Positions 4,728 through 41,700 of a stretch of 64,000 nt of DNA are shown in pieces. Numbering within the stretch: the first letter of the stretch is position 1; every line of letters starts with the position of its first letter. The stretch is from Eledone cirrhosa (lineage: Eukaryota). Both the position numbers and the translations under genes were made by a program. The DNA lies in NCBI GenBank assembly GCA_964016885.1, contig OZ024741.1, positions 155,744,001-155,808,000 of the forward strand, given 5' to 3'. The notes below the pieces were generated by a model that worked only from the letters and a program-made list of their open reading frames with translations, was not told the DNA's origin and did not search any database.

Positions 4728-4764
<37 letters not shown>

Positions 4765-4955
4765 GGTTTGAGGTTCACCACTGTATAGAGCTGGTCTATT
4801 CCGTATGGTCAATCGTAATGCAATAATATAGAGAGTACTCAACGTAAGACAGTTCAACCTTCTTTGTTTTTGTAGTTGGTGGTGCTATTACGGAGTTAAA
4901 TATTATAATGAAATGACAGGATGCTGGATTTGTGTAAATCCTTGAAAGGTTTATT

Positions 4956-5013
4956 ATACTATGATCATTTCAATGACCGGGTTCCGTGTGAATCCGGTGA
5001 TATCATCAGGTAT
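4956..5013 (-). ncRNA. Type I hammerhead ribozyme (family A)
   Basis: AUAC CUGAUGA U-AUCACCGG..CCGGUCAU-U GAAA UGAUCA UA^ GUAU, with a palindromic UGAUCA loop III. Confidence 0.8.
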
Positions 5014-5551
5014 TCGAAATATAATACGTGAATGTAATAGATAAAATCCATGGGGCTGAAAATCGAGGACCCGAGGGCGACCGCTATTCTGTTCCTTCAG
5101 CTTCAGCCGGTCGCCCTGGAGTGACGTGGCTAAAGTTTATAGTATGCTACTACCGGTCAGATAAACGAGAACAGAAAGGGATGGGAACATAAGTTAACGT
5201 CGATCTCATGACACAAGGTAAAAGAAAGAAAGAAAGGAAGGAGAGAGAAGGGGGAAGACAGAAGAGAAGAAGCCAGGTTTAATGTCAGCTAAAAGAAGAA
5301 AGGCAACTACTACCGGTCAGATATAGGCAAGCAAGAGGGGAAGGAAGATAAGTCTGCGGGAGGAAGACAGGAAGAGGGAAGAAGAGAAGGAAGAGAAGAG
5401 AGAAGTAGAAAAGTAAGGGTTGATGGCTACAAGAAGGAAGATAGAAAGAAAGAGGAAGAGAGGTCGATATTAATGTCAAACCACAGTCAGGCCAGGAGTG
5501 GCGCGAGAAAATTTTCACAGGGACCCGCATCTTAGCAGAGGTGAATATATT

Positions 5552-5695
5552 TGTTTCTACTTTAGGCACAAGGCCAGCAATTAACCAGTTCATTACTGGT
5601 ACTTCATTTCATCGACCCCGTAAGGATGAAAGGCAAAGTCAACCTCGGCGGGATTTGAACTCAGATCGTAAAGGGACGAAACTATGCTGGAAAGC
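5552..5695 (-). mobile_element. tRNA-derived SINE, 5'-truncated
   Basis: B-box GAGTTCAAATCC on the minus strand and a 13-bp TSD AGGTGAATATATT (5539-5551, 5696-5708). Absent from the sister arm at ~8320. Confidence 0.9.
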
Positions 5696-8600
5696 AGGTG
5701 AATATATTGGGAGTCAGTGTGTTACAGTGTTTAGACTTCTAGGATGAAGTTAAACAAATTAATAATCAATATTCAATATTAAAGAGGTTAGAGAATTTAA
5801 AGTTCAACAGTTTAACATTTTATTATATAATAGTTCCGATTTGTTCTGTAATTTAAAGGTACTATGTGGCGGTTAAAACACCGGCCGCGCCCCATGGCGA
5901 ATTAAGCTACGCCGAGTATTTTCATTTACCGAAAGAAGGGGAAATTTATTTTTCCAAGCACTCCAGGTGAGCTCGTTCGCCAGGGAGCTGGTCGCGCCGC
6001 CATTAAAACCCTACCAACAGTCCGACAGAAAGTTGGAACTTTAAAATTTTGCTTAGAGAAGTAGAAGAGTAATGGTTGATGGCTACAAGAAGGAAGATAG
6101 AAAGAGAGAGGAAGGAAGGTCGATATTAATGTCACACCACAGTCGGGCCAGGAGTAGCGCGAGAAAATTTTCACAGGGACCCGCATCTTAGCAGAGGTGA
6201 ATATATTGGGGGTCAGTGTGTTACAATGTTTAGACTTATAGGATGAAGTTAAAAACTTAATAATCAATATTCCATATTAAAGAGGTTAGAAAATTTAAAG
6301 TTCAACAGTTTAACACTTTCAGGTTGATATATCTAATAGTTCCGATTTGTTCTGTAATTTAAAGGTACTATGTGGCGGTTAAAACACCGGCCGGGCCCCA
6401 TGGCGAATTAAGCTACGCCGAGTATTTTCATTTACCGAAAGAAGGGGAAATTTATTTTTCCAAGCACTCAAGGTGAGCTCGTTCGCCAGGGAGCTGGTCG
6501 CGCCGCCACTAAAACCCACCCAACAGTCCGACAGAAAGTTGGAACCTTAGAATTTTGCTTGACTCTATCGGATGAAGTTGAAAGAATTCAGAATAACATT
6601 ATAAATCTAAGGAGTAAGAAGATTGAGAATTGAACAAACAGAAAATTGAAGATTAAACATTTAAATAACTTCTATGAGGTTTTGGGTTGCGGGGTTTAAT
6701 TAAATAGAGTCTTTTATGAAGAAACGTTAATTGTATTATGTAGATCTGTAATTTATCCTAGTGGGATGTAGAGTACGGGATATAGTCGTGTAATGTTTAA
6801 TTTTTGTTCTCAGGAGGAGACATTCTAGAGTCGTGTGCTAATGGGTACAGGTCCCAATGTGAGGAGTAGAAATACATGGATACAAAGAAGTGGAATACGT
6901 GGAAGAGCCCATTGGTACAGCAGAGGTATAAATACATAAACATATCAATATATAGGTATAAACATGTAAATAAACCAACAAGAGTGGTGTTGGAGTAAGA
7001 TGGAGAAATCAAGACATATTAGAATTACAATATAGTTCAGGTTGCAGTATTTATGTTCCGGGGGTGGGGGGGGGGGGGCAATCCTGTGTCGTGTGCTAAG
7101 GGTACACGCGAGTAAAAGTCCGAATAAGGGAAGTAAAAAGTACATGGATGTATAGAGGTAGAGTACGTGGAAAGGCATTAATACAGCAAACAAAGATGTG
7201 AAGATATAGATAAAAAAACAATAGTCGTTGTCTAGTAAATGTAGAGTTCAAGACACAGGAGAAATACAATATAGTTCAGGTTGCAGTATTTATGTTCCCA
7301 GGGGGAGATATTCCAGTGACGTGTGCTAAGGGTACACGCGAGTAAAAGTCCGAATAAGGGAAGTAGAAAGTACATCTTTGTTTGCTGTATTAATGCCTTT
7401 CCACGTACTCTACCTCTATACATCCACGTACTTTTTACTTCCCCTATTCGGACTTTTACTCGCGTGCACCCTTAGCACACGACATAGGATTGCCCCCCCC
7501 CCCCCGGGAACATAAATACTGCAACCTGAACTATATTGTAATTCTCCTATGTCTTGATTTCTCCATCTTACTCCAACACCACTCTTGTTGGTTTATTTAC
7601 ATGTTTATACCTATATATTGATATGTTTATATATTTATACCTCTGCTGTACCAATGGGCTCTTCCACGTATTTCACTTCTATGTATCCATGTATTTCTAC
7701 TCCTCACATAGGGACCTGTACCCATTAGCACACGACACTAGAATGTCTCCTCCTGAGAACAAAAATTAAACATTACACGACTATATCCCGTACTCTACAT
7801 CCCACTCGGATAAATTACAGATCTACATAATACAATTACGTTTCTTCATAAAAGACTCTCCTAACCCAAAACCTCATAGAAGTTATTTGAATGTTTAATC
7901 TTCAATTTTCTGTTTGTTCAATTCTCAATCTTCTTACTCCTTAGTTTTATAATGTTATTCTGAATTCTTTCAACTTCATCCGATAGAGTTAAGCAAAATT
8001 CTAATGTTCCAACTTTCTGTCGGACTGTTGGTTGGGTTTTAGCGGCGACGCGACCAGCTCCCTGGCGAACGAGCTCACCCTTCTTTCGGTAAATGAAAAT
8101 ACTCGGCGTAGCTTAATTCGCCATGGGGCCCGGGGCGCGGCCGGTGTTTTAACCGCCACATAGTACCTTTAAATTACAGAACAAATCGGAACTATTAGAT
8201 AATAAAATGTTAAACTGTTGAACTTTAAATTCTCTAACCTCTTTAATATTGAATATTGATTATTAATTTTTTTAACTTCATCCTAGAAGTCTAAACACTG
8301 TAACACACTGACTCCCAATATATTCACCTCTGCTAAGATGCGGGTCCCTGTGAACATTTTCTCGCGCCACTCCTGGCCTGACTGTGGTCTGACATTAATA
8401 TCGACCTCTCTTCCTCTTTCTTTCTATCTTCCTTCTTGTAGCCATCAACCCTTACTTTTTTACTTCTCTCTTCTCCCCTCTTCCTGTCTTCCTCCCGCAG
8501 ACTTATCTTCCTTCCCCTCTTGCTTGCCTATATCTGACCGGTAGTAGTTGCCTTTCTTCTTTTAACTGACATTAAACCTGGCTTCTCTACTTCTTTCTTC

Positions 8601-8840
8601 CCCCTTCTCTCTTCTTCCTTTCTTTCTTTCTTTTACCTTGTGTCATGAGATCGACGTTAACTTATGTTCTCATCCCTTTCTGTTCTCGTTTATCTGACCG
8701 GCAGTAGCATACTATAAACTTTAGCCACGTCACTCCAGGGTGACCGTCTGAAGTTGAAGGAACAGAATAGCGGTCGCCCTCGGGTCCTCGATTTTCAGCC
8801 CCATGGATTTTATCTATTACATTCACGTATTATATTTCGA

Positions 8841-8898
8841 ATACCTGATGATATCACCGGATTCAGACGGAACCCGGTCATTGAAATGATCATAGTAT
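8841..8898 (+). ncRNA. Type I hammerhead ribozyme (family A)
   Basis: AUAC CUGAUGA...GAAA UGAUCA UA^ GUAU with an intact core. The third copy at 11236-11293 has GAAA>AAAA and a damaged stem II. Confidence 0.8.
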
Positions 8899-11340
8899 AA
8901 TAAACCTTTCAAGGATTTACACAAATCCAGCCTCCTGTCATTCCATTATAATGTTTAACTCCGTAATAGCACCACCAACTACAAAAACAAAGACGGTTGA
9001 ACTGCCTTACGTTGAGTACTCTCTATATTATTGCATTACGATTGACCATACGGAATAGACCAGCTCTATACAGTGGTGAACCTCAAACCTGAATAAATAA
9101 TGCTCCTGAAATGTTGCGCACTTCAAAATGTAATAATGAACAGCGGCATGGGACTGAATATATCTAACCACAATTCGAACTTTGGCTACCCGGTGTTTTC
9201 GCCTGGCCCATTGCTACTCCCCTCTCAGAATATCCGAACTTCGACGAAACTCCACGGATTAGACCACAACATGTATTGTACTGCACTGTATTAACTAAAT
9301 CGCTACCCTATACTTCTGGGCATGTATAACTCACACTGAACTCCCAGACTCGAACACACACACTGTTTCCACATCTATATGCATTATCTGACTGCAACTT
9401 GAATTACATTGTATTTCTCCTGTGCCTTGAACTCTTCATTTAATAGACAACGACTCTTGTTTGTTTATTTATATCTTTACATCTTTATTTGCTGTATTAA
9501 TGCTACTCCACGTATTCTACGTCTATACATCCATGTACTTTCTACTTCCCTTATTCGGACTTTTACTCGCGTGTACCCTTAGCACACGTCACTGGAATAT
9601 CTCCCCCTGGGAACATAAATACCGCAACCTGAACTATATTGTATTTCTCCTGTGTCTTGAACTCTACATTTACTAGACAACGACTATTGTTTGTTTATCT
9701 ATATCTTCACATCTTTGTTTGCTGTATTAATGCCTTTCCACGCACTCTACCTCTATACATCCATGTACTTTTTACTTACCTTATTCGGACTTTTACTCGC
9801 GTGCACCCTTAGCACACGACACAGGATTGCCCCCCCCCCCGGAATATAAATACTGCAACCTGAACTATATTGTAATTCTCCTATGTCTTGATTTCTCCAT
9901 CTTACTCCAACACCACTCTTGTTGGTTTATTTACATGTTTATACCTATATATTGATATGTTTATATATTTATACCTTTGCTGTACCAATGTGCTCTCCCA
10001 CGTATTCCACTTCTATGTATCCATGTATTTCTACTCCTCACATTGGGACCTGTACCCATTAGCACACGACACTAGAATGTCTCCTCCTGAGAACAAAAAT
10101 TAAACATTACACGACTATATCCCGTACTCTACATCCCACTAGGATAAATTACAGATCTACATAATACAATTAACGTTTCTTCATAAAAGACTCTATTTAA
10201 TTAAACCCCGCAACCCCAAACCTCATAGAAGTTATTTGAATGTTTAATCTTTAATTTTCTGTTAGTTCAATTCTCAATCTTCTTACTCCTTAGTTTTATA
10301 ATGTTATTCTGAATTCTTTCAACTTCATCCGATAGAGTTAAGCAAAATTCTAAGGTTCCAACTTTCTGTCGGACTGTTGGGTGGGTTTTAGCGGCGGCGC
10401 GACCAGCTCCCTGGCGAACGAGCTCACCTTGAGTGCTTACAAAATAAATTTCCCCTTCTTTCGGTAAATGAAAATACTCGGCGTGGCTTAATTCGCTATG
10501 GGGCCCGGGGCGCGGCCGGTGTTTTAACCGCCACATAGTACCTTTAAATTATAGAACAAATCGGAACTATTAGATATATCAACCTGAAAGTGTTAAACTG
10601 TTGAACTTTAAATTTTCTAACCTCTTTAATATGGAACATTGATTATTAATTTTTTAACTTCATCCTATAAGTCTAAACATTGTAACACACTGACCCCCAA
10701 TATATTCACCTCTGCTAAGATGCGGGTCCCTGTGAAAATTTTCTCGCGCCACTCCTGGCCCGACTGTGGTGTGACATTAATATCGACCTCTCTTTCTTTC
10801 TTTCTATCTTCCTTCTTGTAGCCATCAATCCTTACTTTTCTACTTCTCTCTTCTCTTCCTTCTCTTCTCCCCTCTTCCTGTCTTCCTCACGCAGACTTAT
10901 CTTCCTTCCCCCTCTTGCTTGCCTATATCTGACCGGTAGTAGTTGCCTTTCTTCTTTTAGCAGACATTAAACCTGGCTTCACTTCTTCTTTCTTCCCCCT
11001 TCTCTCTCCTTCCTTTCTTTCTTTCTTTTACCTTGTGTCATGAGATCGACGTTAACTTATGTTGCCATCCCTTTCTGTTCTCGTTTATCTGACCGGTAGT
11101 AGCATACTATAAACTTTAGCCACGTCACTCCAGGGCGACCGGCTGAAGTTGAAGTAACAGAATAGCGGTCGCCCTCGGGTCCTCGATTTTCAGCCCCATG
11201 GATTTTATCTATTACATTCACATATTATATTTCGAATACCTGATGATATTACAGGATTCATACGGAACCCAGTCATTAAAATGATCATAGTATAATAAAC
11301 CTTTCAAGGATTTACACAAATCCAGCCTCCTGTCATTTCC

Positions 11341-11403
<63 letters not shown>

Positions 11404-11873: not shown

Positions 11874-12270
11874 TTATACTTCTCTTAGGTCAGTGTTGTT
11901 TGTTTGGGTGTTGTTGTTATTCCATTCATTCTCTCTGTTTAGCTTTGGTCTTCTAATTTCTATTTCATTGGCCTCTCTGATTTGCCTATCTGCTGGGTCA
12001 TTTCTATGTTTAGATATTATTCTAATTTCTATGTTGTCTATGTTACCGTCATGTTGTTGTCTAGCATGTTCGTATAGTACTGACCCGTTTTTTCGTCCTT
12101 TTAGTTCCCCCCAGTGTTGGTCTATCCTTTCACCTTTGCTACGAGCTGTCTCACCTATGTATGTTGTTGTCGTGTTTCTGCAAGTACCCTCTGTACATCT
12201 TATGCTATAGACTACGTTTCTAGTTTTACAGTTTATCCGGGGGTTCACCTTACATATGATACATTTCCTA
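11874..12270 (-). pseudogene. Inverted copy of the PLE GIY-YIG endonuclease C-terminus, including the natural stop
   Basis: NCKTRNVVYSIRC..YIGETARS.GERIDQH...RQIREANEIEIRRPKLNRENEW; nearly identical to 13540-13760. Confidence 0.9.
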
Positions 12271-13760
12271 CATCCATTAACATTGATTTTGCTGTGAAAA
12301 GATGTGTGGAGATGATCATTGAGAGTGAGGTGGAGTTCTGCGACGTCGACACAGACGAACTGGGCCTCCTACTTAGACTTACCTACGACACTGACTACCT
12401 AGACAGCCATCACCTTAGATGTTTCTGCCCTAGTAGACCTATAAGAGGTAGACCCCCCACCATAACCTCAATGGCAAAAAAGACTCCTATGGGAAGGTGG
12501 ATTGGGTGGACCAAAGCTATACGGATCCCCCAAAACAATGATCAGGTAAGAAAAATGGTCGCACATGCAATAGGGGCTAGTATCAAAACTACACTAGAGG
12601 GCCACATATTTAAGTTCAATGAGAAAATCTACACCCAAAATGAGGGAGCAGCCATCGGCGTCAGCATAGCTGGTGATGTTGCCAACCTTTTCATGGTATG
12701 GTGGGAAAGGAGACTTAAAGATCTCCTTAATGAAAGCTCCATAGACCTCATCATGTACTCTCGTTATGTAGACGATATCAATATAGTTATAAGAACACCC
12801 CCACTAGAGAGCACTAACAAGTTTGATTTAGAACGTAGCACGATGGAAAGCATCCAGCAGATAGCTAATTCCATACACCAGAGTATAACTGTAACTACCG
12901 ACTTCCCTTCCAAACACGCTAACAATAGACTACCTGTATTAGACACAGAACTCTGGATTAACACTATAGACGAGAGAGCCCAAATTCTCCACTCACACTA
13001 TGCTAAACCCATGGCCTCCAAATATCTGATACTCAAAAACTCAGCAATGTCCAGTAGTGCTAATTTTAATATTCTGATCGCAGATTTGGTACGAGTGATG
13101 AAGAATGTGTCCCGCATGTGCGACCCAACAGAAATGGAAAGACACATCCAACACTTCATCAACCGCATGCAGTTCTCTGGCTACAACCAAAGAGACAGAG
13201 TCAGAGTATACGAAGGAGCCATGGAAAAGTATAAGACCCTCATAGAACTGGACATGAAAGGAATTTGCCCATTATACAGGAGCAAATCATGGAATAGCTT
13301 AGATAGGGCTAGACATAAGATAGGGAAAGCCACATCATGGTACGACAACCAGAGATACCAGAGATACCAGAGTGTCATGTTTGTGGACGCCACCCCTGGA
13401 GGGAAATTAGCTAACCAGTGTAGAAAGGCCCCGAGAAAGACCCACTTAAAAATAAAGGCGGTAGAAAAGCCAGGAACCACCATAAAATCCCTGATCAGCA
13501 AAACCTACCGTTTTAAGAAAACCCACTGTACTAATAGGAAATGTATCATATGTAAGGTGAACCCCCGGATAAACTGTAAAACTAGAAACGTAGTCTATAG
13601 CATAAGATGTATAGAGGGTACTTGCAGAAACACGACAACAACATACATAGGTGAGACAGCTCGTAGCATAGGTGAAAGGATAGACCAACACTGGGGGGAA
13701 CTAAAAGGACGAAAAAACGGGTCAGTACTATACGAACATGCTAGACAACAACATGACGGT
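12270..13760 (+). pseudogene. PLE reverse transcriptase plus GIY-YIG endonuclease, truncated at both ends but open
   Basis: RT motifs QNEGAAIGVSIAGDVANLFM, YSRYVDD and LPVLD; Cys-rich linker; VY...YIGETAR GIY-YIG motif. The listed ORF's first ~50 aa and YI tail are artefacts. Confidence 0.92.
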
Positions 13761-13779
13761 ATATATATATACCGTCATG

Positions 13780-13858
<79 letters not shown>

Positions 13859-24519: not shown

Positions 24520-27500
24520 AATTAATATAAAAGATGTCCGTCAATGTAAAAAAGGTCCCTATTTACTTGAAATGGTTTATACAAATTAATATGGATATGG
24601 ATAACATGCTTATCTATAAGTGGTCAGCTATAATAATAAAACAACAAATTATATGACACAAAAATTTATTCACTAATTTCCAGGCTCTTAGCCACTGAGT
24701 AATAGACAGTCAATAATTCCCAGAGTTCAACTCGGGGAGGTGGCGGATCCTTCTACTTCGAAAATAGAATCATTTTTCAATATTACTCTAGCCCTGGCCG
24801 GCCATAGGCACCAAACGTTTTGCCAGACTCACTATATGATGAGGTTTTATTACCACCGCTATCAGAAGCGATAAATTTGAAGGCAATTTCTACCAATATT
24901 TGTTGGTTTTTATTGCTCATTATCGACAATAAATGACATTGAACAGAAATGATAACTCTGTCAAAGTTCACAATACTGATCAAAGGACACCAATGTCCGA
25001 ATCATTTACGTCGCTTATTGATAGCATTAAAGATATGCATACATCAGCTCAAAGCTTCATTATAGACAATATTCAGGGTTGTTCCTCTGTTAGTGGTATC
25101 AATTGCAAATTTTACACCATCAGGATCGCACACTCGAGATGCAGCAACATACAGTTGCCCATGGCTGAATGCTGGATCATTCAACTAGACACCGACTCGC
25201 TTGAAAGTCTGTCTCTGTGCCTTGTTGACAGTCATGGAGAAGGCCAAATTGACGGGAAACTGTCTCCTTTGCCAAATAAATGACAGCATATCTTCACTTG
25301 GTCTCAGCATGAACCTCGGAATGAGAACCGATTCCTCTCTGCCTGGGAGTTTAGCTTCTAAAACTCTTCCGTTAATCAATCTCTCAACAATCAATCTGGT
25401 ACCATTGCAAAGACCCATTTTATGATTGATATTTCTAAGCAATATAATTGGCATACCCTTTTTCAACCTCAAAATATGTGGGGGGGATCCGGGTATTTGA
25501 AGTGAATTCAAATACTCAGTCGGAACATCCATATTGTTCTGCTGATTAAGCTCCATTGCATCCGTACTGACGGTCAACCATTCCTCTCCAGGAAATATTC
25601 CGGCTACTTGTGAATTTATTTCATCGACCGTTGCATTCGTATGAGTTAGAATAACGCGTTCCGATATCCAGGAGATGCCAAAAAGCATTCAAATTAGGGA
25701 ACACCCAGTCAATCATTGCTTGGCGGTCCAGTGGCATGACCAAATGGTCTGGGATTCTTACAGTCTGATTATCACCAACGTGTGGCAATTCATCGTTTCC
25801 CAACTGCATCAACCATCGGCCGTTTTTCTTAGCCTCTTCATTTTGCCCGAACATACGAAGTCGCATATTATCGTGTAATCGCAAAACTCTGAAATGGCGC
25901 CACAACGGGGACTTTTTCAGACATGCATCGACAATTTGCGCTCTTTGAGAATTCCTAACAATTGGTAGCACCTGTCTGAAATCACCACCAAGAACGAGTC
26001 TTCCCACCGAATGGCAGGTCACTACCACAGATATCTCTCAAACTTCTGTCCAATGCCTCCAGCAAATATCTGTGTGCCATTGAAGTCTCGTCCCAAATAA
26101 TCAGAGACGTATTGCGTATAAGGCCCGCGAGTTCACTTTGTCCTGTAATGTTACAGCCACTCTACTCATCCGGAGCCAATGGAGCCTTGACGCATGAGTG
26201 GAAGGTCCTTTCCCCACTCAGCAAAGTGGAAGCGATCCCACTGGTGGCCACAGGGAGAGCAATCTTCCTCTGAGCTCTGACTGCCCATAACATAGTGTTG
26301 AAACAGAATGTCTTTCCGGTGCCTCCTGGAGCATCTATGAAAGCACAAAGTTGCTCATTAGTGGAAATCGAGTGGAGAACGCCATCGACTAATTCTCTCT
26401 GAGATTGGGTCAACATTGGCATACGTTCATCCACAATACGTTGCTGTTCCAGTAGATCAAACTGGAATAGTTCCCTCCGATCGAGTGGCAATCGTCTAAG
26501 CTGCAATCTCATGTTCAATGCTAAGACACGTTGCCGCATTTCTTCATCAGGAATTGGCAAATTGAAATCTGTTAAACATTTGAAATGAACTTCAAGCAGT
26601 TGCTCATCATCGACCTGAAGATGATGCCTAAAATCATCAACCATAATTCCCCAATGGCGTTCAAATAACTCTCTTGGATCGGCAGGATTGCAGAATCCTA
26701 TAATCGTGACAAACAACTGCCTTATTTGAGCTGCCATCTGTGTGGTTCCTGCAGCTTCCATGGCGTTATCCCATTCAGCGTCATCTTGAAGGAATCCCAA
26801 ATGCTGACACACAGCCTGGTATGTTTCATATTCCACGGCATTGATTGTTTTCAAATCAGCGAAGCTCTGTTTATCTCTCGAAAAATGACTATGCAACATA
26901 ATTCGGATATAAAACACATCACCAGATGCTGGATGGACATTACAAACCCATCCAATAGTCATGAATCTCAACTTTTGTGTTCTATCATTCCATTTCTTTC
27001 CATTCTTATCCCACGTATAGTGCGAAGGGAAATCGCAGAAGAGCTGCCTTTGACCCGGGTTCAAAGTATGTTCCCTATTATGCTTGAACCACTCAGTCAA
27101 TTCCGTCTTAGGAGGTGGTGCGTTAGCAATTCTTTCGACAGCTCTTCTAGTGTCCTGAAAACAGAGCATTTGCCTATTCTCTAAGTGAACCGTCAGTTTC
27201 TGAACGCTGGGTTTGCGTTCATTGAGATCAAAGTCGAACAATCTCCAGCAAGCGTCGCTCGATCCAATCGAGCGAACATCCTGGAACCTGCCAACTTCAT
27301 CTCCTTGGTTCGCTTCCTCATTCCTGACATTGATCATTGCTCGATCATGACCTTTGGTAAACATATTTGAATAGATATTTGCAAGCTTTCACTGCGCTAT
27401 AAATTTCCACATTAATATGACAACGATATTTCATAATCAAATATGGATTGTATGACACAACCCATTGATTTGTAACCTGTCGACCGTTTACATTTTCAAC

Positions 27501-30170
27501 CAAACCGCCATCGGCAGGCGACCGTATTCTGTATGAGGGATGAGCACCCCCATCGTTCCAGGAAGTGTTCGTGACAAAAGATTTCGGAAAGTGCTTACTG
27601 CATTGGCCATTTTTCATGCAAGGCGCTTTCTGATTTGCTACTCCGCATTGGTTGTGCACCATTGACTTTTGCCACCAAGTTGCGTAGTGCCTCATTCTCC
27701 GGCAGTTCAGCACACACAATGCTGTCGACATCCTCAGCACATCTCAATTTGCAATCTTTATGTAAAATGATCAGAAAATGTGCATGTAGCAATCCTCTTT
27801 TTTGGAATTCAATTACGTATGTAAAAGCAACTATACCTCCAAAGATTCCCTCTTTTTCTACATCATCCATTATCTTTTTCAGATATCCTTTGAATACTCT
27901 TGCCACAATATCAGGACGGTCCTTTGGCTGTTGTCCTGGCCAAAGTGCATCCTTAATATCAGTCCATTCCGGATTGCATGTAACCGTTATAAACAAATCT
28001 GACTTTCCAAACTTTCTAACAATAGACATTGCATCCTGATAGCGAATGTTCATATATCTCGAGCCGCCGATGAACGACCAAGGCAAAATGATGCGTCGAC
28101 CAATTTGCTTGTAATTGGCATTATCGGCTGTTATCGCATCCTGTATATTATTATACAATTCAGCTCTGATATGTTGCTGATGTGTAGCTATATAATTTAG
28201 CCTTTGATTTTCGATCTTTGCGAATGCCATACAACAGTATTCCTGGAACAATCTGCTGGCTTGAAATAGCGCATTTCTCTGTTGATTCCTGTCGTTCAAA
28301 TGGAACGCGTAAAAGTCGCGAATCGAATTATTGTGTCTATTGCCACCTCCCTGTTGATGCTCATTCTCATGATCATCTAAATGAACAGATATGTTCCATC
28401 CATTTTCACCTTTTGGGAATAAAAGAACATAATGCAATGGATCGTATGCCCTATTTGACTCATTGATAGTCTTGAGACCACCATCTCTGCGATTGAGGAC
28501 GATATCTCTCGATCCAGGCTTATCGTCCATCAACACAGCAACTTCACGAAATCCTTCAGGGGCATTATATCGCCGTTCGTGTTGATTCCTTGGCACTGCG
28601 TCAGCCTTAATCACCAATGTTTGCTGCGGAACATTTTGCAGTTCAGCCACCAACATGAAATCCATAACATAAGGATTACACTGTCTAAGCCATGATTGCA
28701 AATCACGGATCAAATCACTTAACATTTGCCGTTCAAGTTCAGTTATATTTCCCGGCAACTTCATCCAACCGATCCTGATATCCTCCTCCGATTCACTATA
28801 ATCTGGATCGTTAACGTAAATTTGAGCGAATCGAGGCCTCTCTCCTGGGGTAACTTCTAAATTACCGATACACTGATACAAACGGCCTTGAATGACTACA
28901 TTCGGTTGCCATCCTCCACTCTCAAACATCTCACTAACTCTCTGCGATGCTAAAGCTAATGAATTGTTAATTTGCCGCGAATATTTGCGCAGTAATCTAC
29001 CTCGGTCTCCTTGATCACCCCACACACCTAGTATTTTAAACTCCGGTGACTTCTCATCATTCGGCATTCGCAAGGGTTCTAGTTGAACTCCACCTTTATG
29101 ACAGCACATTGTGGTCCACGTCTTTTCGTACCTCCAAAGCAATGCTCCACAATGTCGACACTCTGCTCGTCCACCAATCTGAAAATGATACGGTTGCCAT
29201 GATCCATTTTTAATATCATCCGTTCGCCTTCTAGCCTCTTTACTGGAATGCGGAGCACTTTGGCGACACATTCTCTGAACTTCTGTATTGCGCTGGCGCT
29301 GTTCAGCCAGCTCCTCTTCATCCATCGCAGCACGCCGTTGCTGCTGAATTCTGGCCATCTGCTGATGATGCTCAGCCAGTTCATCTTCAACCATCGCAGC
29401 ACGCCGTCGCTGTTTGGCTCCAGTGTTTCGTTGGCGTTCTTCAGCCAGCTCATCTTCCTTCGTTCCGATGGCGCTGGTCGGCCCGTTTTCTTCATTGCTG
29501 GCTGAACGCCGTCGCCGCTGTAGTTCACTGTTTGATAAAGTCGAATTGCTTTTATTATCAGTATTCATTTCGAGCAATTGTCAAAAAATGTAACAATAAT
29601 AAATATAAAAGATGTCCGTCTATGTAAAGAAAGGTCCCTATTTACTCCCTTCACAACTCTGTGTATGTTAGAATGACAGACAGGCACACAGACAGATAAA
29701 CTGCGTGGCCATTGTGGAACGCCACACACATACACGCATGGAAACGCGCACACGCACGCAAACTTACACACGCACACACTCACATATGTTGATAGTTTTT
29801 ATTTTTGTGGAAAGCTGCACGCACGCATACACACATAAACATACGCGCACGTACATACACACGCATACATATTAATAGTTATTGCTTTCCTTCCCCTCTT
29901 ATTTCCACACACTTCACACACACACAAGTCTCTACACTGACACATATACATAGTGTATAAAAAATGACACAATAATAAATATGTTAACAGTTATTGAACA
30001 CAGCGTTCACACTCTCCCCTCTCACTCCCTCAATGGCATTATGCATATTAATATAAGTTTGTCGTCGTTGAGCTGGGTGGAGTCGTTTGAAACCTATGAA
30101 CCAATGATAATCGAGAATTATGACACACGGAATACTGACGTTCTTGAAATTAATAAATATATATATATAT
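24520..30170 (-). mobile_element. Decayed autonomous Helitron 1 (ends approximate)
   Basis: Contains the Rep/Hel pseudogene. A 5'-like AT-rich end lies near 30170, where the family B element is inserted. Confidence 0.75.
25040..29577 (-). pseudogene. Helitron Rep/PIF1-like helicase, frameshifted
   Basis: Rep motifs DLFITVTCNPEW, EFQKRGLLHAH, KYLFKY; helicase motifs FIDAPGGTGKT, GGDFRQVLP, GLCNGTRL, RRQFPVNLAFSMTVNKAQ; spread over at least five ORF pieces. Confidence 0.95.
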
Positions 30171-30171
30171 G

Positions 30172-32232
30172 TTTGTTGGTTCACCACTGGATAGAACTGG
30201 TCCTTCCGTATGGTCAACCTCGATGTAATATTAGAGAGAGCACTCGACCTAATGCAACTCACCCGTCTTCGTTTGTGTTGTTGGTTGTGCGTGTACGGAG
30301 TTAGTTATTATAAAATAACAGTAGGCTGGACTGGTGTAATTCCTTAAAGGTTTATTATACTATGAACATTTCAATGACCGGTTTCAGTATGAATTCGGTG
30401 ACATCATCAGGTATTCGAAATTTAACAAAGGAATATAATCCATGGAGCTGAAAAGGCAGATTGACACGAAGGCGGCCACCCATTTAGCAGTTTCTAGTTC
30501 GGTCGGCCGCCCTCAAGTGACGACTACCAATTCTTCTTATGCCTTTCTGGTGAAGGGGCATAATCTTATAGTGCACTACTACCACTCCGTCAGGGACAGA
30601 GGCTAGCGGTGGGATCAGGTTACATTGAAGTTTGTCAGGAGTGCTAAAAAGTGTTAAGAAATATATTTTTTCAAAATACATATATATCTTTAACAAAGCT
30701 ATATATAGTGGGCGCCTATACATTATATTTTTCGTTGTAGGATCAGAAATTACGATTACCGATTAGAAATGTAAAATTTATGCTCAGAATTAAAAGATAT
30801 CATTTAAGATGAGATTAGAAAAGAAAGAGGTTTAAATTTGGGAGATTTAGTTAAAGAATTTACAGAAGGAGGCGTTTATGAAAAGGTTAATTGTATTATT
30901 GATAGTCACGATAAAGTTTCAGGGTAGAATATAAAGTCAGGACTAAGCCCATGTTTGGCGGTCAGTAACCAGCGACGTTGCGGACTCTCAGCCCACTTGG
31001 GGCCCAATGACGTGTCAACCGTTCCGAGTATTTTCGTCTACCGAAAGAAAGGGAAATTTATTTTTCCAAGCACTCCAGGAATGTTAACTATCTCAGGCAC
31101 CGGGGGTGCTAGCAGGAAGCCCGCCACCGTCGGCTGATCATCGTGTATACCAAACGTTTCTTAGTTATTCACACTGGTGGGGGACTTAGTTAAAAGGATA
31201 GTAGAATGAGGCATGATACATTTTAAAGTTAAGCGTAGAATTCAAAAATACTGTTTGGCGGTCAATAACCGGTGGGACGGCGGATTCCAAGCCCGCACAG
31301 GGCCCAAGGACGTAACAGCCGTTCCGAATATTTTCGTTTACCGAAAGATGGGGAAATTTATTTTTCCAACCACTCTAGGAAGGCTGATCGACTCGAGCGC
31401 CTGGCGTGCGATCGGGAAAGTCGCCACATCAGTCGGATCATCGCGTGTACCAAACGATTATTAGTTATTCACACTCGTGATGTCAAGTTTATCAGTGGCA
31501 AAATCTAATGAAATGGGTAAGAATACTATATTTAGTCCCCAATTAGCCCGGGTTATACTGTATGTAGTGTGATTCCTGAGTGGGTGTGGGGAGTGATTAA
31601 AGATAAACATATATAAAGGGTACAGAGAATAATATTCTAGGGTCGTGTGCTAATTTTAGGTACCAGATGAGTATATAAGGAGAGTAAAGTGAATAAATAC
31701 ATAAATAAATAAAATGCAGTCATGCCCAGGGTGGTAATTGTGGGAGTAAAAATGGAAGTAAATAAAAACATATCGAAGGAATCAAAATACAGAAGAAATA
31801 AAATACAGATCAAGGTGTAACAAATAAACAATAGATAACACAGTTAGAGAATACATGGTTATAGATATAGATATAGAGGATGGAAGAGTTGGAGTGGTAT
31901 CAGATCATACTTAGTGTAGGTTCGAGTCTTAATTTTCAATGTGAATCCCAAAACCTTGGAATATATGATAGATAATTCAGTCAATACAATACAGGGTATA
32001 ATAGAATATGTTGATTTTTTGAAGAATCTATGAAGTCAGACGGAGTTTGAGTGTTCCTGACAGGCAAGCAGCAATGTATGGTCCGGGCGGGCGATAGACA
32101 TAGCTTAATGCAGCCAAAATCCGAATGGTGTGCAGTTAGTCCCATGTTGCCGATAGCTGTACACTGGAGCCAAGGGCCCCTGTTCCTTATTACATCTGAA
32201 AGCGCTCGAATTTTTCCTGGAGCTTTATTTGT

Positions 32233-32236
<4 letters not shown>
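30172..32236 (-). mobile_element. Long non-coding HHR retroelement (family B), a single ~2.06 kb unit and diverged relative of family A
   Basis: Both ends align with family A unit ends (32050-32235 with 9096-9250; 30172-30450 with 4765-5060). HHR at 30357-30414, two copies of the structured domain, (AT)n flanks. Confidence 0.85.
30357..30414 (-). ncRNA. Type I hammerhead ribozyme (family B)
   Basis: AUAC CUGAUGA U-GUCACCG..CGGUCAU-U GAAA UGUUCA UA^ GUAU. Confidence 0.75.
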
Positions 32237-38743: not shown

Positions 38744-41700
38744 CTAGCAGTTTAGCCTGGCGTTGCTCGGGTTTGTTCATTTGCTATGAAAAGTTACATA
38801 CAGGTAAACGTGGCTTCAAAGAGAATAAGCTTATCAATTAAGTGCATAAAGCGGTTGAGCCGGTTGTTAAAAGTTACGAACCAATTAGTATTTTGGACAA
38901 TCAATGATGGGTTAATAATCTTCCAATAGGGAATTTAGCAGACCAAAGTTGCAAGATGGTGGCCCTGATGCCACTGGGTGTCAGATCTGTCCGCCATGGG
39001 TGAGCCTACCAGGGAATAGTTTTCCAGACGGTATAGCTCCACCACCTCCAATACCTGCACCAACATCTATAGCACCTCTTTGTAGACGATATTGCGTGTC
39101 ATCCATTGAGGAGTGTAAGCAAAAAGTCCATTCCTGCACCCTACGCGGGAACAGGCAACAAAGTTGGCCATGGTAGGAGCATGGCTCCTCCAAATGGATT
39201 CCCGCCATCAACAATGTTTGCCCTTGTGACTTGTTAATGGACATGGCAAAAGATGGTCACACCGGGAATTGGGATCGCCGGAAATCGAACGAAATATCTG
39301 ACGCCGAGGGAAAAATGTTCATCCTTGAAATGAAAACATTCTCCCTTCTCCCGCACCCCGTTACAATGGTGGCCTCAATCAAGTGGGGCGTCAGTGACTT
39401 GACGACCATGCGAGTACCGTTGCACTGCTTTGGTGGACGCAAGTTCCTTATTAACATAATGGGACAGCCAACCCTAAGCTGTGAGGTGGGAGCCCTGGGG
39501 GATCAAGGGAATTTAATAATAACAACCGGATAATTAACGATATTGTCGGGGTCTGACGTCTGGTCGATAGATTTGAAGATGTGCTCTTTACCTGGAATTT
39601 TGTCAATCAGCTGCTCATTAATAAAATTAACCATGGCATATTTGGGAGCAAGGATAGCTGTTTCGCTGAGCCAATCGAGGTTTTTAAAGTTAGATGAGAC
39701 GTTAGGAAAAACTGCTTACCAAAGGTCAGAAGGGCTGCTCACAATGTTGCACAGGGAGTCGATTGCTATGCCGCCCTTATCATCCGCAGGGACCTTGCCC
39801 TCACCAAGTGCTAAAATGTTCTGAGCAAATGCTGCAGACATGTTGTCACCATGCAAATGAGCACGCATATTTGTGCTCAGGTACAAAGTCTTCACCTGGA
39901 GTCACAACGTGGACGATTTAAGGCAGGCACGCACTTCATCAGCTCTTGTCCCTTTGGGGATGACAGGCAGCGTTTGCCGAAAATCCCCTGATAGCAGAAG
40001 GGTTACGCTACCCATAAGAGCCGTAGAATCCCTAATGCCTTTCAGGGTCCTGTCCAATGCCTCAACGGCAACCTTGTGTGCCATTGTGCACTCATCCCAA
40101 ACAACGAGGCAACATTTTTTGAGAACCAGAGCTTCGGGTGAGCTCTTACTGATATTGCATGTTGGTGTCTCAGTTTTTACTAAATCCAAGGGGAGTTTAA
40201 AGGTTGAATGTGCTGTCCTGCCTCCCGGCAGCAGAGTAGCAGCGATCCAGGACGATGCAACGGCCAACGCAATTTTTCTCTCTTGACGAATCATAGCGAG
40301 AATCAATTTCGCTACAAAATGTTTTCCAGTACCCGCAGGAGCATCGAGAAAGTAAATACACCCTGTCTGATTTTCAACCGCATCAATGATAGATAAATAG
40401 GCCAACCTTTGGTCCGACAGAAGTTTGGGCTCATTTTCCTCGAAGTATTGGGAAAGAGATTCGATGTAATATGCTGTTTCCCGCAACAAATCCGGGGCCA
40501 ACGTGTTAGCTTCCTCTCTGACGGTTGACGGCAAGCCATACGTCGCCAACTCATTCCCACCCATGTCGAAGAGGGCGTTCTCGATATCAATGACTGCCCT
40601 GTTGTAGATAATGTCGCTGTAACCAACTTCCACTGAAGGATACTGTAGATGAGTCAGGCGCAGGAAGTCCTCAGACATGAAATCTCTGTACCTGACTCAT
40701 ACAGATTTGGGATCACGCAATTCACACCTTTGAAGCAAAATGGCAAAGAGTTCCCGTAGACTTTTAGGTGATTTCAACAAAGCACCCTCTACTAATGTGG
40801 AATCCCATTGCGAATCATCTTCCAAAACGCCATGCTTAAAGCAGGCTTCCCGGTACGTATCACATATTTCTTCATCAACAGTTTTGAGGTCCTGGAAACT
40901 TTGTGGGCCTACAACTTCATGCAGAAGAAGGCGGAGATGAAAACACTCATGCTGACTTGGGGGTACAGTGTAAACCCTTCCAAGACAGCTGTCAGATTTT
41001 ACACCAGGATTTCTTTCAACAGCCTGACCTGCCTTTCTTCGCACCCAAGTGTTTTTCGACCATATAAAGTAGGATGGAACCTGGGGGTACACAATTGTTT
41101 GCGCAAATGTATCGAACTGGCAAAGTTTGAAGAAACCCGTCAGAATGGTCTCTTTCGGATCGGCGGCCAACTTGGCGGTGGTTTGGTCCGTAAAGTAAAC
41201 CCTTTGCCCATTTTCCAAACGTACCGCAAGCTGTACGATGGCGGGGTGCGTTGGTGTAGGGGTAAAGAAAATAGGCGCCAAAAAGCTTCATTGCTACTGA
41301 TGTACCGCCCCGCCAGGTATTCTGTGACCACGTCCCTGCTATTTTCAGCTTGAAATGCGAACCAAGAGAAATCAGAGCCCTTATTTACATATTTGCATAT
41401 GTATTTTATCGACTTGATGTATTTTATCAACTCAACTTTGATGTGGGCGTTGAACATCTTCAAGAGAAACGGGCAGTAACGGACCACCCATCTATTGTCG
41501 ACTTGACCTCCCTTTACTGTTGGGGTGAATCCACCGTTATCGGGCCGTCTCCGCCTGTACAGGGGGTACCCGTCGCCACCAGTCTGAGTCTCGCCAACAA
41601 ATGTTTTGGGGTATCCCTTACTGCACGAACTCCATTTCAGCCACGTGTGATGCTCATTAGGACCCGAAGCACACGGACCATGAATCATGTTAGCTTTGAC

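Follow-up and report, generated by a model that had tools for sequence, protein, structure and literature searches.

A 56-base core kept in two families of hammerhead-bearing, non-coding Penelope-like elements of Eledone cirrhosa, and its possible role as a protein-docking RNA module

The stretch of Eledone cirrhosa DNA analysed here (contig OZ024741.1, 64,000 nucleotides, hereafter the window; all core and element coordinates are window positions) is AT-rich and crowded with TA and CA microsatellites. It holds two families of elements, A and B, that share a core of 56 bases lying upstream of a putative hammerhead ribozyme motif, and it is this core that we describe. The elements and their motifs are laid out as follows.

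4755-11342: whole span of family A, an inverted copy and a partial tandem joined at about 7372, with both outer ends in (TA)n
4755-7375, minus strand: left A copy, inverted and 5'-truncated, ending in (TA)n and broken by a dispersed repeat of about 145 bp at 5552-5696
7372-11342, plus strand: partial tandem of A, about 1.7 units head to tail, ending in (TA)n
30153-32233, minus strand: element B, one whole unit of about 2.08 kb, both ends at the equivalent of A ~9090-9099, with TA repeats flanking both sides
8845-8894, plus strand: putative type I hammerhead motif of A, with CUGAUGA, a long helix II, GAAA, a palindromic helix III and an AUA triplet (pattern and alignment)
4960-5009, minus strand: putative hammerhead motif of the left inverted A copy (pattern and alignment)
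11240-11289, plus strand: decayed hammerhead motif of the right A unit, with AAAA in place of GAAA
30361-30410, minus strand: putative hammerhead motif of B, 70 of 77 bases the same as in A over motif and flanks
9391-10080, plus strand: internal repeats of A, each of about 230 bp and with one TTAGCACACGAC motif

Since the A hammerhead motifs at 8845 and 11240 are 2395 nt apart, this is the length of an A unit, and the units of the two families measure 2.1-2.4 kb. B is a monomer with one hammerhead motif and, because both of its ends map to A ~9090-9099, it represents one whole unit permuted about 200 nt downstream of the hammerhead cut. That B starts and ends at one internal point is as expected of one copying round on a circular or tandem RNA. 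No remnant of a reverse transcriptase (RT) or of a GIY-YIG endonuclease was found in A or B with 16 Penelope-type proteins (tblastn), and the longest open reading frame (ORF) with an ATG start is 89 aa. A and B are thus non-coding, non-autonomous Penelope-like elements whose insertions lie in TA microsatellites, in partial-tandem and inverted arrangements: they have a type I hammerhead core near one end, partial-tandem and inverted insertions with alternative ends, a microsatellite target and no ORF for an RT or endonuclease. The hammerheads are putative, being called from pattern and conservation, and Rfam gives no score to these motifs in A or B. Most 150-nt segments of the two units fold no better than shuffled sequence.

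Some further features of the units were observed. The motif TTAGCACACGAC has nine copies with at most one mismatch, eight in A (6841, 7099, 7329, 7472, 7725, 9579, 9809 and 10059) and one in B (31653, minus strand); it occurs once per ~230-bp A repeat and once in B, amid otherwise unalignable sequence, and is a candidate promoter or second binding site. AATAAA is also kept at ~8898, ~9093, 11294, 4955, 30356 and 32229, that is, in both families at the unit end and just past the hammerhead cut on its 3' side. Just upstream of the hammerhead, a folded stretch rich in GC (30420-30530 and 11100-11230) is 61% conserved between A and B and reaches a z of -3.6 in one B segment on the sense strand. 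The dispersed repeat at 5552-5696 presumably has the look of an octopus short interspersed element (SINE).

The copies of the core are given below, P1 to P3 being its predicted helices.

5912-5967, minus strand: core A1, intact, with P1 GAGUG/UACUC, P2 GGAAA-AAUAAA-UUUCC (5940-5955) and P3 UUUCG-GUAAA-UGAAA
5862-6010, minus strand: whole folded domain of A1 as predicted, the core standing atop an irregular basal stem of about 30 bp
6418-6473, minus strand: core A2, intact, within an internal duplication of about 506 bp in the left A copy
8078-8106, plus strand: core A4, with the 5' half deleted (5' strand of P1, and P2)
10427-10481, plus strand: core A3, with the 5' arm of P2 (the AAUAAA hairpin) mutated
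31024-31079, minus strand: core B1, intact, with a G-C closing pair in P3 and the loop GUAGA
31324-31379, minus strand: core B2, with P2 and P3 intact and, in the predicted ensemble, a different helix in place of P1

The first-pass annotation of this DNA had reported a core of about 55 nt at six sites, and both searches of the window bore this out. BLAST of the core returned six copies at E values of 4e-26 to 6e-11, the next match having an E of 0.35; a covariance model built from five of these copies and applied to the entire window without filters recovered the same six at 36-99 bits, with everything else at 12 bits or less. The 16-nt AAUAAA hairpin occurs four times with at most two mismatches, as against 0.15 expected in the window. 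Every copy is on the strand of a downstream hammerhead motif, and the core lies 614-760 nt upstream of such a motif. Four of the 56-base cores are intact and two are damaged. All six copies are indeed present, but they are not six samples: they belong to only three independent lineages, A, B1 and B2, A1 and A2 being identical at 55 of 56 positions and A3 and A4 being damaged A copies. In both damaged cores (8078-8106 and 10427-10481) P2 was struck, by different lesions, neither of which is among the common variants of sequencing run X1 (see below).

Between A and B the cores are identical at 51-53 of 56 positions and the hammerheads at 70 of 77, as compared with 140 of 180 for the tail and 202 of 376 for the unit start, while the spacers before and after the domain align at 0.32 and 0.36, no better than shuffles (0.35 and 0.40). 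The two families are homologous over their full length and can be aligned only in islands (hammerhead, tail, unit start, core and TTAGCACACGAC). The near-invariance of the core noticed earlier therefore holds: it is a conservation island as tight as the hammerhead, and the module is real and selected. The three lineages are about equally distant from one another in the core (50-53 of 56 identical in each pair). The domain was duplicated separately in the two families, over 506 bp in A and over 300 bp in B. B1 and B2 are 75% identical over 231 nt without a gap, and their differences fall less often in the core (6 of 56) than outside it (51 of 175; Fisher P 0.004). The statement that the flanks differ completely was too strong, given this identity of B1 with B2 and the 11-14 of 30 flank bases, plus short blocks, that A and B share. 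As a further observation, the B1 and B2 domains (30950-31180 and 31250-31480), 300 bp apart, differ at 25% of these 231 positions without gaps, and the other ~70 nt of the 300-bp unit are unalignable; length thus seems constrained over a region of B far larger than the core.

Public contigs gave a further view of the core. Eight of the 11 sequencing runs listed carry part of the stretch and none carries half, with no RNA run listed among the carriers; contigs from four of the 11 were compared, with 6200-6750 only. Two of these runs (X7 and X8) cover only non-core parts of that segment. In run X1 (512 records) contig depth, summed per bin, is highest on the core (45,659 and 54,995, as against 1,444-26,294 in the other 27 bins), which is a weak hint that more families may share the core, and no more than a hint since summed contig depth is not copy number. 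Only two core variants reach at least 4% in this run (6425 and 6430), and both fit the substitution pattern of the intact cores. Run X6, which bears another organism label, has six records at a depth of 3-4: one contig has A-type sequence over 6233-6465, and two have core sequence only. One of these two (record 11, depth 3.6) matches exactly 6418-6473 and is unlike A beyond both edges. Compared by eye with the flanks of B2, the loose ends of the core-only contigs agree at 19 of 30 positions on one side and, ungapped, at 14 of 30 on the other, and this suggests a further B-like subfamily. The core tract has its edges at closing CC/GG pairs in the X6 contig as well as in A, B1 and B2.

The cores of A1, A2 and B1 are predicted to fold as a three-way junction on the hammerhead strand, made of P1 (GAGUG/UACUC), P2 (GGAAA/UUUCC, loop AAUAAA) and P3 (UUUCG/YGAAA, loop GUARA). 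The AAUAAA hairpin had been recognised from the start; the second hairpin, UUUCG-GUARA-YGAAA, was absent from the first-pass annotation. We take its loop to resemble the GNRA-type pentaloops. In their own context, the four intact cores have pair probabilities of 0.94 for P2 and 0.77-0.91 for P3 on the hammerhead strand, compared with 0.44-0.85 and 0.26-0.83 on the opposite one. Among these four cores there are eight distinct substitutions, six at unpaired positions and two that keep a pair as G-U/G-C; none of the eight breaks a pair (P about 0.011, 20,000 random placements), and on the opposite strand both of the pair-keeping changes become C-A mismatches. The preference for the hammerhead strand proposed earlier is supported by the P2 and P3 probabilities as well as by the pair-keeping changes. 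So is the idea that differing flanks still form a long stem: with their own partners the 30-nt flanks of A, B1 and B2 give duplexes of -31.5, -22.5 and -31.4 kcal/mol, which only 3, 21 and 2 of 1000 base shuffles equal, whereas the four A-by-B pairings reach only -14.5 to -19.9 kcal/mol. In an RNAalifold consensus of five copies, double-sided changes were seen in 7 of 49 pairs, all of them outside the core and in an alignment that is itself uncertain. Taken together, the modelling makes a fold on the hammerhead strand likely, its firm part being the two hairpins on a basal stem.

What this fold may be for was then considered. We favour, at a probability of roughly 55%, the reading that the core is a protein-docking RNA module needed for mobilisation of a non-coding element. 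It would act in cis in the RNA of a non-autonomous, hammerhead-bearing Penelope-like element, where a long basal stem of free sequence is predicted to present two short hairpins of fixed sequence, one with the AAUAAA hexaloop and one with the GUARA pentaloop. A protein may read both hairpins, because their stems and terminal loops are fixed to the letter and the junction bases are variable; such a pattern, together with a basal stem that is paired yet free in sequence, would fit a protein-read surface better than a catalytic centre. This protein would bring the non-coding RNA into a transposition particle. It could be the helper RT-endonuclease itself, which we hold tentatively, or, at slightly longer odds, an RNA-binding factor of the host. 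The latter would stabilise the uncapped RNA, be it hammerhead-cut or circular, or bring it to the ribosomes making the helper protein, in the manner of SRP9/14 (from the signal recognition particle, SRP) with Alu. Copying would then begin at the unit end, about 200 nt downstream of the hammerhead cut. In a non-coding element, such a site can serve only the making, keeping or handing over of the RNA, and a docking module is favoured for that reason. Everything beyond a conserved and probably folded core is, in this account, what we infer.

Several points weigh against the docking module or the fold on which it depends. The GAGUG/UAYUC helix of the first-pass annotation, predicted at 0.90-0.95 in A1, A2 and B1, has a probability of only 0.08 in the B2 ensemble, where B2's own substitutions build another helix, so that the three-way junction is not constant. 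The covariation hoped for inside the core did not appear: there is no double-sided change in its 17 pairs, 12 of which never vary and are therefore uninformative. One of the two pair-keeping changes is a CpG transition, and such transitions are common anyway. The 5' flank of B2 pairs with the 3' flank of B1 at -25.2 kcal/mol, more strongly than B1's own flanks do, and the B1/B2 consensus fold has three compensatory pairs against a shuffled-column mean of 2.8, 115 of 200 shuffles scoring as high. The stability of the isolated core is ordinary (z -0.5 to -1.9), and family A folds better on the opposite strand (z -4.75 versus -2.96), where its flank duplex is also stronger (-34.6 versus -31.5 kcal/mol). 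One low-depth X6 contig differs in the P3 region (loose end at 6442). A partner element with the core did not turn up in the searches of the window. Finally, in the one Penelope element studied in vitro (PMC11167929), the protein-binding region is downstream of the hammerhead and the full pseudo-long terminal repeat (pLTR) is dispensable.

The main rival, although an unlikely one, is that the core acts as double-stranded DNA, its arms being two palindromic sites for transcription factors, within an internal promoter or enhancer that was duplicated in A and B to raise transcription. Fixed arms with variable spacers are also typical of paired palindromic sites, no compensatory change occurs in the core, the domain was duplicated separately over 506 bp in A and 300 bp in B, and Penelope pLTRs contain an internal promoter (PMC8557442). 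However, sites in DNA leave unexplained both the self-pairing of three different flank pairs across the core and the G-U bias to one strand; TTAGCACACGAC is an equally good promoter candidate, and the sense strand has no A or B boxes of RNA polymerase III (Pol III).

A poly(A) signal is quite improbable. Here the AAUAAA loop would direct or regulate 3'-end formation, a function that the first-pass annotation had offered among three and that proves the weakest of them. AAUAAA is invariant in the four intact copies, stands entirely in the loop and has no variant listed at 4% or more in run X1. Cleavage at such a site would nevertheless remove the hammerhead and the insertion end, and a working poly(A) site thus fits poorly: the RNA would stop short of the hammerhead by 614-760 nt and of the insertion end by about 800-950 nt, and a tandem pair of copies would double the loss. 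With a poly(A) signal, cleavage takes place 10-30 nt downstream, often at CA, and is followed by a U/GU-rich element. As read from the sequence, the 30 nt downstream are without CA and are folded into P3 and P1, and no U/GU-rich tract lies at the usual distance. Moreover, A and B keep AATAAA at two better sites, just past the hammerhead cut and at the unit end, and conservation is just as strong in the second hairpin and in the letters of the stems, neither of which a poly(A) signal calls for.

We give the same poor chance to a catalytic or ribozyme-helper domain, be it a new self-cleaving or ligating motif or an RNA-RNA pairing module that enables dimer-type hammerheads. The core is as conserved as the hammerhead and its fold is branched, and the Penelope hammerheads of metazoans are poor at cleaving by themselves and depend on dimers or protein (PMC4209133, PMC11167929). 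Yet the junction bases vary most, with four of the eight substitutions (six when the bulge is counted). Known small ribozymes show the reverse pattern, junction bases not being their variable ones. In addition, Rfam gave no ribozyme family at E values up to 10, neither loop is self-complementary, and the core is 600-760 nt away from the hammerhead.

Slightly less probable still is an origin without selection, by recent gene conversion or template switching that copied one 56-nt tract between families. The window has only three lineages and Penelope copies are often rearranged; against a copied tract stand the similar identities of the three lineage pairs (50-53 of 56), tract edges that sit at the closing CC/GG pairs in all three lineages and in the X6 contig, and substitutions that avoid pairs. 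Least probable of all is a structure that acts on the new cDNA strand in pausing, template switching or second-strand priming: family A does fold better antisense, both damaged A copies were struck at P2 and the internal duplication spans the domain, but with DNA energies the basal stem forms antisense in A1 and not in B1 or B2, and in the sense strand in all three, so that no common antisense fold is predicted, and the pair-keeping changes favour the sense strand.

Penelope-like elements are the closest relatives of telomerase among retroelements; their choice and carriage of RNA are largely open, one element having been studied in vitro. A non-coding parasite retains only what it needs in cis, and A and B have retained the hammerhead along with the insertion end, a short motif upstream and the core module. 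As the module measures only 56 nt, can readily be probed, deleted or used as bait, and comes with natural variants as well as two natural knock-outs, it makes this choice and carriage of RNA testable. It is conceivable, at rather low odds, that what the genome holds as A and B is a non-coding circular RNA parasite of 2.1-2.4 kb, several times the size of the animal retrozymes described, whose dedicated docking domain serves the telomerase-like Penelope RT or a delivering host factor. In that event the domain would be the first defined protein-recruiting RNA fold of its class, with a role comparable to that of the Alu SRP domain or the telomerase RNA activation domain, and it would give a compact handle on how Penelope enzymes pick their template. 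Should the core turn out to be a conversion tract or an element of a DNA promoter, there would be nothing unusual about it.

We compared A and B with known systems. The non-LTR (long terminal repeat) retrozymes of metazoans (PMC7229834; 10.64898/2026.07.22.740005) are likewise non-coding, with a type I hammerhead and a proposed Penelope origin and mobilisation. Their units stand head to tail with one hammerhead in each, a layout that A, with two motifs 2395 nt apart of which the second is decayed, may share. B resembles them in being one unit-length permuted copy, as from a circular or more-than-unit template, and such a template has been proposed for Penelope-like elements (PMC4209133). In contrast to retrozymes, which are small (150-1000 nt) and have a largely self-paired monomer, the units of A and B are not self-paired throughout and reach 2.1-2.4 kb, where retrozyme units have 170-400 nt, or 51-972 bp in a survey of vertebrates. 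The available parts of the two retrozyme papers describe no conserved internal module besides the hammerhead; A and B are known here from DNA. The pLTRs of endonuclease-positive Penelope-like elements (PMC4209133, PMC8557442, PMC11167929) have, like A and B, an atypical hammerhead with a long helix II and a palindromic helix III. The anatomy of the insertions also agrees: a partial tandem plus an inverted 5'-truncated copy, two alternative ends and (TA)n targets (PMC8557442). The AC-rich end downstream of the hammerhead is as in the anole element studied in vitro, and the architecture of A and B accords with the internal RT starts of that study (PMC11167929). A and B differ from known Penelope insertions in having no RT/GIY-YIG remnant and an end extension of about 150 nt, not 30-40, and their module lies 600-760 nt upstream of the hammerhead, whereas the known protein-binding and initiation region lies downstream (PMC11167929).

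In the SINE bodies CORE, V, Deu, Meta and Ceph, an internal block of 40-80 nt is also kept while the remainder of a non-autonomous retroelement diverges; their function is given as unknown, and some derive from the UTR (untranslated region) of the helper (PMC4824008, PMC5786205). Unlike SINEs, whose Pol III head derives from tRNA, 5S or 7SL RNA, A and B have no tRNA head and no Pol III boxes, and their partner would be a Penelope element. Exact short words of the core are absent from one supplement of PMC5786205, by word match only. The 5' domain of Alu that binds SRP9/14 (46 nt; 10.1101/2024.12.16.628748) is a working model for a folded domain of about 50 nt by which a non-coding element captures a helper RT via a host protein. 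The core differs in being internal rather than 5'-terminal, and in Rfam it matches SRP RNA neither in sequence nor in fold. The core's 3' half presumably bears a faint likeness to the CORE domain of MIR. With the PTE-class cap-independent translation enhancers (PMC10484670) the core shares a T shape, a long bulged basal stem, two short hairpins, a pyrimidine/C-rich joining strand and a single 3' junction base; it differs in lacking their defining G-rich 5' bulge, which pairs with the C-rich junction (its own bulge is of 2 nt and variable, UG/UU/UA), in having a 5' junction of 3 nt and in having no ORF to translate. The selenocysteine insertion sequence (SECIS) of Naiad elements, a hairpin with an AUGA/GA quartet downstream of a selenoprotein ORF, was considered and rejected, there being no ORF and no Rfam SECIS match.

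Rfam 15 has no match at gathering score in the window, in keeping with the earlier remark that the core belongs to no recognised RNA family; around two of the domains the best E values were 0.9 and 2.7, ranging to 9.8 and far below gathering scores. Protein coding, which could have accounted for the conservation, is refuted: in B1 and B2, stop codons immediately upstream close the W-K-N-K-F-P sense frame, the B1/B2 substitutions are spread evenly across codon positions in all six frames, and 30-33 non-synonymous codons stand against 6-11 synonymous ones. The core pattern has no match among viral sequences or metagenomes. Three pattern matches were set aside: one in a prokaryote genome (Myroides), a chance match without P1 and the 3' arm of P3; a chance match of a half-core pattern in viral contigs; and a metagenome match of the hammerhead pattern on a gene-dense contig, without helices. 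Some features picked out by eye, namely a hairpin in B resembling a T-loop, a stretch of B resembling twister and 5'-arm palindromes, were dismissed as missing in A or out of register. The window searches gave no tRNA gene, no sense-strand Pol III A or B box by pattern and no autonomous element carrying the core. Literature searches, which included exact core words and to which the repeat databases (Repbase, Dfam, SINEBase) were external, returned no description of such a module, and core words are absent from the supplements of PMC8557442 and PMC5786205. The available main text of the O. vulgaris repeat paper makes no mention of ribozymes (PMC13282606), and one further paper (PMC10886601) has no bearing on the module. 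The module is thus probably undescribed as far as these searches reach, and repeat libraries could hold A and B as unnamed repeats.

Other features of the window lie outside the two families. At 11930-13780 there is an RT-zinc knuckle-GIY-YIG remnant with a 591-aa frame, 26-42% identical to 15 unnamed proteins, together with an inverted fragment of its own 3' part and a (TA)n end; the RT-GIY-YIG remnants of the window, this one included, have no DNA in common with A or B. A 442-bp tandem repeat at 55543-57718 (4.9 copies) has one minus-strand hammerhead-like motif per unit and looks like a conventional retrozyme array without the core. Short hammerhead-like motifs also occur as fold-back pairs (3910-3946/4636-4679 and 17241-17283/17557-17589) and singly (11637, 54168, 55412, 59731 and 61179). 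Two broken Helitron Rep/helicase regions are found at 25185-29580 and 39900-43700, and element B adjoins the first of them.

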